Of a DNA stretch of 64,000 nt, positions 36,603-36,839 are shown piece by piece; position 1 is the stretch's first letter, and each line of letters starts with the position of its first letter. Below the pieces are notes generated by a model. It was not told the origin of the DNA. It did not search any database and saw nothing but the letters and a program-made list of their open reading frames with translations. Source of the DNA: Pocillopora damicornis (lineage: Eukaryota); contig NW_020845874.1 in assembly GCF_003704095.1 (NCBI RefSeq), forward strand, positions 124,001 to 188,000, read 5' to 3'. The position numbers and the translations under genes were made by a program.

Positions 36603-36839
36603 ATGGAGCCCGCAGCCAGCAATGAGACGGCCAAACAAGAGCACGGCGGGGATGGCGCTGATCCAGAAGAACCCATCGAAGAACACGAATTTCAGAGGTG
36701 TTCTCGGAAAGGCCGAAGGGATGCCTGCCCGGACATTCACTGCAAGTGCGGCGATTCCAAACAAAGTGGTGAGTGTATGTTTCACAAAGAAGCTACACAA
36801 GCTGACTCAAAAAAAGAGAGCGGCGAGGAAAAGGCGTGA
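36603..36839 (+). CDS. cAMP-dependent protein kinase inhibitor (PKI)-like microprotein, 78 aa
   Basis: AAAATGG start context. EFQRCSRKGRRDACPDI aligns with the PKI inhibitory segment (PKI-gamma DFISCDRTGRRNAVPDI): Phe at P-11, Arg at P-6, Arg-Arg at P-3/P-2 and Ala at P0. Size is similar to vertebrate PKIs. AATAAA occurs about 100 nt downstream. Confidence 0.7.
   Translation: MEPAASNETAKQEHGGDGADPEEPIEEHEFQRCSRKGRRDACPDIHCKCGDSKQSGECMFHKEATQADSKKESGEEKA

Follow-up and report, generated by a model that had tools for sequence, protein, structure and literature searches.

A conserved single-exon gene of the coral Pocillopora damicornis encodes a PKI-like pseudosubstrate followed by a Cys/His tail

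RESULTS

Layout of the locus

We analyzed a 64,000-nucleotide stretch of the Pocillopora damicornis genome, referred to here as the window, which carries a 78-amino-acid open reading frame (ORF) between a spliced gene and a convergent ribosomal protein gene (Table 1). The upstream neighbor is likely ATG13, and ATG13-like exon matches were found in orthologous loci L008 to L012, L014 to L016, L018, and L019. The ribosomal protein S9/S16 exon was matched downstream in five loci (L012 to L016). The window gene therefore sits between ATG13, a likely assignment, and RPS16 in orthologous loci.

The interval from 38600 to 44490 holds ~5.5 kb of extra DNA before the S9/S16 exon (7.9 kb, versus 2.3 to 2.7 kb in orthologous loci). 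It contains two short ORFs that lack Pfam matches, as well as a pair of direct repeats, now diverged, at 39603-39685 and 41500-41577, and it is possibly a mobile-element remnant. RNA cover was missing at 39373-40773 in four of four runs, although a hole in the contigs proves nothing. Elsewhere in the window, an intronless 240-amino-acid ORF (24155-24877, plus strand) with no Pfam match at the cutoff lies between an alpha-adaptin gene on the minus strand and the ATG13-like gene, and several hydrophobic ORFs at 48470-55746 (plus strand) resemble exons of a multi-pass membrane protein; the three tested gave no Pfam match.

TABLE 1 Features of the window and of the two other PKI-like loci in the genome
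Feature	Position	Strand	Basis or remark
Upstream spliced gene, likely ATG13	28640..35931	+	GT..AG joints; Pfam ATG13 E=0.0027, below cutoff, one exon
Span of unspliced RNA contigs around the ORF	36136..38608	+	Contigs; likely proximal 3' end ~37483, distal ~38590
Upstream ORF, 27 codons (22-30 in orthologues)	36358..36441	+	ATG in strong context, kept in 6/6 rows
Upstream ATG in another frame, 17 bases ahead of the main start	36586..36879	+	Weak context, kept in 6/6 rows
78-aa ORF, single exon (window protein, P0001)	36603..36839	+	Translation, RNA contigs
PKI-type pseudosubstrate, F30-I45	36690..36737	+	Phe P-11, Cys P-8, Arg P-6, Lys P-5, Arg P-3/P-2, Asp P-1, Ala P0, Cys P+1, Pro P+2
Cys/His tail, C42-H61	36726..36785	+	Occupies the region where PKI has its nuclear export signal
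GTGAGT donor-like site	36769..36774	+	Joined by NCBI gene models to the AG at 37000-37001; unused in RNA contigs
AATAAA	37461..37466	+	Kept in 6/6 aligned rows; one RNA contig ends at 37483, 17 bases after
Last exon, ribosomal protein S9/S16 gene, convergent	44492..44712	-	Pfam Ribosomal_S9 E=2e-9
Canonical coral PKI ORF	L002:1498-1707 (G000:C2336)	-	PF02827 search, NES pattern
Second divergent PKI-like ORF, 67 aa, P0023	L003:1459-1662 (G000:C1122)		PF02827 search

The ORF is a transcribed single-exon gene

The start codon of the ORF stands in a strong context (A at -3, G at +4), and a genome search found a single copy of the ORF in the 234-Mb genome. The named BLAST matches were models from Pocillopora meandrina (100% over 71% of the query) and Stylophora pistillata (95%), both of which carry a spliced tail in their NCBI versions. 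The preliminary description had suggested a small gene that pipelines could miss and had flagged the GTGAGT at about 36769 as a possible splice donor. In all seven RNA-type runs, drawn from five studies, single unspliced RNA contigs spanned the ORF together with the predicted intron (36769-37001), and no splice joint was seen there; four of these runs (two studies) are recorded as RNA, and three were taken as RNA by guess. GT..AG joints were visible in the upstream neighbor gene in four of the seven runs. The first suggestion was thus borne out, in that two NCBI models mis-splice the gene relative to the RNA contigs, and no use of the flagged donor was seen in those contigs.

That the true gene is instead the spliced NCBI model (74 amino acids, without C58 and H61), or that the frame arose by chance within untranslated sequence, is very improbable. 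The donor is used by two NCBI models, and RNA contigs carry no strand and no true ends and lose rare isoforms; however, the GT of the donor is absent from five of five orthologous sequences, and the codons beyond the lost donor still encode C58 and H61. A chance frame is opposed by the variable columns over residues 29 to 62, which fall on codon positions 1, 2, and 3 in numbers of 8, 3, and 19. Together with the unspliced contigs, these data largely refute both versions. An intact ORF of 76 to 83 amino acids was present in 13 of the 14 loci fetched, so that the transcript and ORF conservation put forward as a check were both found. We also considered a selenoprotein or stop read-through and rejected it: the stop is TAA in L017 to L019 (3 of the 13 ORF-bearing loci), so there is no invariant TGA. 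No Rfam match came near its cutoff within 35900-38700. The 78-amino-acid ORF is a real, transcribed single-exon gene.

The pseudosubstrate core is invariant and under purifying selection

The window protein is acidic (net charge of -7), and its translation places F30, R35, R38, R39, D40, A41, and C42 ahead of a C42-x3-H46-C47-x-C49-x8-C58-x2-H61 cluster. Pfam PKI (PF02827) was its sole family match (E=0.0041, 17.8 bits, residues 29 to 50), below the gathering score of 25 bits. The same family was matched by 7/7 members of alignment A2 (7 sequences; best E, 0.00038), and P0024, P0025, P0030, and P0032 scored 17.4 to 19.5 bits, also under 25. The PKI-like pseudosubstrate of the preliminary description, for which a Pfam PKI search had been proposed as a check, was therefore recovered at a score short of the family cutoff.

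In 150 Markov simulations of a 64-kb window, each read in six frames, the loose motif F-x4-R-x2-RR-x-A occurred by chance 0.04 times per window, and a stricter form appeared in 0/150. Given that the motif was picked post hoc and that 0.04 per window scales, by hand, to ~150 chance matches in the 234-Mb genome, the motif alone is indecisive; conservation, dN/dS, and RNA settle whether it is real. Residues E29, F30, C33, R35, K36, G37, R38, R39, D40, A41, I45, C58, and K77 were invariant in 18/18 cluster representatives, so that all 18 carry R-x-x-R-R-x-A with Ala at the acceptor site. The P+1 residue, which in PKI is large and hydrophobic, was Cys in 17 of the 18 homologues and Trp in the remaining one (P0016), with His in the distant P0032; P+2 was Pro in 17/18.

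Comparison of the window with orthologous sequences gave dN/dS values of 0.02 to 0.07 over residues 29 to 48 in five of five pairs (permutation P<=0.0074 in each); these pairs are not independent, as the window sequence is common to all, four of the orthologues are mutually close, and about three lineages are represented. One of the 14 fetched loci (L020) lacks the ORF, and the other 13 amount to six distinct coding sequences, five of which were used; L019 was omitted as a near copy of L017. The C-terminal residues 63 to 78 gave dN/dS values of 0.2 to 3.75 on few, poorly aligned sites. The pseudosubstrate core is under purifying selection, and the conservation of Phe, Arg, Arg-Arg, and Ala, which the preliminary description had proposed to check, was observed in 18/18 representatives.

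A separate feature is the C-terminal (E)K(T/A) (residues 76 to 78; window 36828-36836), which is kept in 18/18 representatives and in the distant P0030 and P0032, while the preceding 15 residues vary. K77 is invariant (18/18) and T78 is present in 17/18, with no PKI-based explanation for either.

The coral genome carries three PKI-like genes with different tails

The 18 cluster representatives (48 to 87% identical by BLAST, 72 to 84 amino acids, net charge of -4 to -15) were aligned as A3, which comprises P0001 and 17 of 20 BLAST matches; P0002, an ORF read-through, and P0005 and P0006, both spliced models, were left out. Beyond the named matches, we infer that the other representatives are from stony corals. 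Of the 14 matches to an exhaustive profile search, six were close members and three were distant short proteins; the rest were one copy with a broken motif and four repeats without relation to the family. The four repeats (P0027 to P0029 and P0031) are Cys-rich, lack the motif, and were rejected as homologues. The broken copy, P0026, differs by changes of P to L, R to W or C, A to V, and H to Y that fit C-to-T conversion, and it is likely a product of a bisulfite-treated library rather than a gene.

Among the distant proteins, P0030 and P0032 retain both the motif and a CxC...CxxH tail, as well as EKT at the C terminus, and P0032 has Asn at P-1, as in PKI. The third, P0033, combines an RKGRRNAC core with a class-1a nuclear export signal (NES) pattern and has no Cys/His tail. 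A PF02827 search of the genome found two more PKI-like genes, a canonical one (L002) and a divergent one (L003). L002 scored 49.4 bits in the genome search and its protein, P0092, scored 50.5 bits, over the Pfam cutoff; L003 scored 18.4 bits, and its protein P0023 (19.0 bits) and P0033 (19.6 bits) both fell under it. P0023, whose cluster has 72 members, has Gly at P-1, Cys at P-8, and Cys at P+1, followed by a hydrophobic segment with no NES pattern match. The L002 protein is identical to the P. damicornis "hypothetical protein pdam_00011290." Stylophora models for an aquaporin and a zinc transporter fall in its cluster as well, perhaps as a result of gene-model fusion; alignment A8 was discarded, as unrelated cluster members were mixed in.

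Used as a query, P0033 matched only the window gene and L003 in the genome (E of 0.006 and 0.014), and alignment A3 matched that of L003 and P0033 with an HHalign probability of 95% over 27 columns. Likeness between the window core and the canonical coral PKI core is confined to 9/18 residues, so that the short motif may also have arisen by convergence. A core-only tree had no supported inner branch; a full-length tree split the tail types (96/92), but this split is circular, since the tail columns were included. The bridging P0033 and the HHalign match favor common ancestry with PKI, and the simplest reading of the sequences would be that PKI was duplicated and that the lineage of the window gene then lost the NES and acquired the tail. 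In all, the genome has three PKI-like genes that differ in their tails: the window gene, L002, and L003. Since L002 and L003, which the preliminary description had missed, occur in the same genome, the window gene is probably a derived paralogue rather than the form that PKI took in early animals.

A Cys/His tail lies in the NES region and is eroded in one lineage

None of the 18 homologues matched any of the nine NES class patterns used in our scan, whereas the same scan matched P0092 and P0033 (class 1a), with an incidental match in P0032. The claim that the window protein has no leucine-rich NES thus stands. In the tail that follows the motif instead, conservation among the 18 representatives was 17/18 for C42, 15/18 for H46, 17/18 for C47, 14/18 for C49, 18/18 for C58, and 17/18 for H61, and CxC-x(n)-CxxH was kept with a variable spacer in P0030 and P0032. 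Residues 47 to 62 showed fewer amino acid changes than expected by chance in four of five pairs (P of 0.001 to 0.015), while no significant constraint was seen against the most distant locus, L017 (P of 0.45 to 0.55). Neither the window protein nor A2 gave a Pfam family over the tail.

In the P0258-type lineage, H46 and C49 are lost, and 10 of 13 fetched members have also lost CxxH (C58 is Ser in those displayed), yet the pseudosubstrate is intact where the tail erodes. The family therefore does not show the four fixed, invariant ligands of a CCCH/CCHC-type zinc motif. Given that ligands were lost with the pseudosubstrate intact, a fixed four-ligand zinc site is not required. The tail is probably a modulating, dispensable add-on; a part for it in zinc binding, redox chemistry, or lipidation can be offered only tentatively.

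Conserved elements in the leader and trailer

Two of three upstream ATGs were conserved in 6/6 rows, compared with 65/460 leader trinucleotides and 0/10 trailer ATGs (P of ~0.05, calculated by hand), and both lie inside conserved blocks. The peptide of the first upstream ORF is not conserved between the window and the other rows. The ORF of the second ATG overlaps the main start in all rows but runs for 97, 69, or 11 codons, so its length and frame are not conserved. The two ATGs could suppress translation of the 78-amino-acid ORF, in a layout that may resemble that of ATF4. Two leader blocks (36276-36314 and 36324-36364) exceed both ends of the coding sequence in conservation, and the second ends in the start of the upstream ORF.

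Downstream, the conserved AATAAA at 37461 and the contig end at 37483 favor transcription from the plus strand. At 37125-37169, a block conserved in 6/6 rows consists of a pyrimidine tract, an AG at 37149-37150, and then AGCAGGTGA; it resembles a splice acceptor, a microexon of 6 bases, or an E-box, and no joint was seen there in the seven RNA-type runs.

Structure prediction and profile searches

The AlphaFold monomer, built from an 18-row alignment, was mostly of low confidence (mean pLDDT of 52, pTM of 0.25) and too uncertain to serve as a query for similar folds, with a helix predicted at residues 27 to 35. A profile of all paralogue types, which includes the canonical coral PKI, returned PKI-alpha chains as the top three PDB matches, in register (E of 0.0009 to 0.027); PDB searches with P0001 alone or with the 7-sequence A2 profile gave no matches at E<=10. 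The ESM Atlas yielded no usable feature match, and its structure rows are meaningless at a pLDDT of 0.28. The coral PKA catalytic subunit (PKA-C), which matches exons of the genome, retains the activation-loop and YPPFF motifs that bind PKI. A complex prediction combining coral PKA-C (P0122, residues 10 to 349) with residues 21 to 66 of the window protein, ATP, and Mg scored 0.03 (mark of 0.34); as it used neither alignments nor folded controls, and peptides and disordered chains lie outside its calibration, it counts as evidence neither way.

DISCUSSION

We consider it likely, with a probability of about 0.7, that the window protein would inhibit PKA-C by PKI-type pseudosubstrate binding, a reading drawn by analogy with PKI. 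In this model, the short predicted helix would lay Phe30 onto Y235/F239 of PKA-C, Arg35 would pair with E203, and Arg38 and Arg39 would fill the acidic cleft; Ala41 would take the phospho-acceptor site, and Cys42 would serve as the hydrophobic P+1 residue. Phe at P-11 contributes weight to PKI affinity, and F30 occupies this position in 18/18 homologues. These contacts follow published ones, in which E203 is the partner of the P-6 Arg, Y235/F239 receive the helix, and L198/P202/L205 form the surface for the P+1 residue (PMC13186710), and in which the P-3 Arg and Mg-ATP are required for high affinity (PMC6514771). At P-1 the PKA consensus calls for a small residue, and at P+1 for one that is large and hydrophobic (PMC6514771), whereas the window protein has Asp and Cys. 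With Asp at P-1 and a small residue at P+1, it would probably be a weaker inhibitor than PKI-alpha; reports on Asp at P-1 or Cys at P+1 were not found in the literature searched, including the portions of PMC7361990 covered. PKI itself uses its pseudosubstrate for inhibition and an NES at residues 37 to 46 for export of PKA-C (PMC7723848). Since 18/18 homologues lack an NES pattern, the window protein would inhibit in place, and PKA would be damped there while export is left to the canonical paralogue.

The invariant Lys at P-5 and Asp at P-1 set the family apart from both PKI-alpha and the canonical coral PKI, which would already serve PKA, and the genome holds two further activation-loop exons (L005 and L006) that are presumably PKG-like. 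The motif may accordingly be thought to have drifted from PKA specificity toward another basophilic kinase, such as PKG, PRKX, or Akt. We regard this as unlikely, as the full PKA-type spacing (Phe P-11, Arg P-6, and Arg-Arg P-3/P-2) is kept in 18/18 homologues and Akt-type sites need Arg at P-5. The subthreshold Pfam score and the conserved C-terminal Lys and Thr would also suit a microprotein without useful kinase binding, with a convergent or relic PKI-like motif and a function residing in the Cys/His tail or the C-terminal K-T end. This, too, has a low probability, given that constraint is strongest on the pseudosubstrate, that this segment is unbroken in the lineage with the eroded tail, and that P0033 bridges the family to NES-bearing forms.

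Inhibition by the pseudosubstrate, our preferred reading, could be joined rather than replaced by a switch, in which zinc at CxC...CxxH or disulfides among C33, C42, C47, C49, and C58 toggle inhibition with redox or metal state. The constraint on residues 47 to 62 in four of five pairs and the survival of CxC...CxxH in P0030 and P0032 are consistent with a switch, as are the invariant C33 (P-8), also kept in P0030, P0032, P0033, and L003, and the low-confidence AlphaFold pairing of short strands at 45 to 47 and 58 to 60; Cys199 of PKA-C is, moreover, a known redox site (PMC12029036). The losses in the P0258-type lineage, the absence of C49 from 4/18 homologues, the unconstrained tail against L017, and the position of the tail outside any Pfam family leave this switch possible but doubtful. 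The preliminary description had placed the P+1 Cys near the activation-loop Cys, from which a more specific mechanism follows: on oxidation, Cys42 would form a disulfide with Cys199 and lock the inhibitor on. The P+1 Cys is shared by 17/18 homologues, P0030, P0033, and L003, the TLCGT cysteine is kept in coral PKA-C, and C199 sits within the P+1 loop (PMC12029036). However, published trapping of C199 goes through a P+2 Cys, that of RII and of SMO L637C (PMC13186710 and PMC12029036), and the P+1 side chain packs on L198/P202/L205 instead (PMC13186710). The proposal is thus one register off the published case; with Pro at P+2 in 17/18 homologues, Trp at P+1 in the P0016 cluster, and His in P0032, it is improbable. 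The Trp fits the hydrophobic role suggested for P+1.

Vertebrate PKI alpha, beta, and gamma (PF02827) are, like the window protein, ~70 to 80 amino acids long, and PKI-alpha in the PDB agrees in register at Phe P-11, Arg P-6, Gly P-4, Arg-Arg P-3/P-2, Ala P0, Asp P+3, and Ile P+4. The register of PKI-gamma was taken from the sequence given in the preliminary description. In that register, Cys13 of PKI-gamma (PMC7723848) is likely matched by the Cys at P-8 of the window protein. The window protein differs from vertebrate PKI in its lack of an NES pattern, its Lys P-5, Asp P-1, and Cys P+1, its Cys/His tail, its longer acidic N terminus (the motif begins at residue 30), and its score under the Pfam cutoff. 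The canonical coral PKI shares with it the genome, the motif spacing, and the 9/18 core residues but has Asn at P-1, Leu at P+1, a class-1a NES pattern, a score over the cutoff, and no Cys/His tail. P0023 (L003) and P0033 share Cys P-8 and P+1, subthreshold PKI scores, and the HHalign match; they differ in the hydrophobic segment after the motif, which forms a full NES pattern only in P0033, and in having no Cys/His tail. The Smoothened C-tail and RII likewise dock RR-x-A/S in the PKA cleft, and in RII a cysteine next to this site forms a bond with C199 (PMC13186710 and PMC12029036); both, however, are segments of large proteins, and there P+2 holds the bonding Cys. The window protein could form the P-6 Arg salt bridge, which is absent from SMO. 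On the strength of its sequence, the window protein most likely works like PKI, though it falls outside PKI by the Pfam cutoff, the P+1 residue, and the NES.

Adenylyl cyclase activity in corals is very high, and their cAMP swings between day and night (PMC3587883), but the termination of PKA signals in corals has received little study. Among the matches listed in our literature search, mostly main texts of open-access papers, we found no description of the window gene or of several cnidarian PKI paralogues. The only paper found that lists a coral PKI names one gene, pdam_00011290, which it assigns to each of human PKI alpha, beta, and gamma in a main table that gives one match per human protein (PMC10838073), whereas the genome here has three PKI-like genes. 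The window gene is mis-modeled or unnamed in the databases searched. If it is PKA inhibitory, the window protein separates the two jobs of PKI, inhibition and export, in a natural protein, and its family offers natural tests of Asp at P-1 and of Cys, Trp, or His at P+1. A more far-reaching proposal, which we rate as speculative and rather unlikely, is that PKI was expanded to three genes in corals and that one of them, the window gene, swapped its NES for a zinc- or redox-sensing Cys/His module and so became the first thiol- or metal-switched PKI-type inhibitor, to which ATF4-like upstream ORFs would add stress-dependent translation. If true, the daily light-driven cycles of oxidants and cAMP in the symbiotic coral cell would be tied to PKA output.
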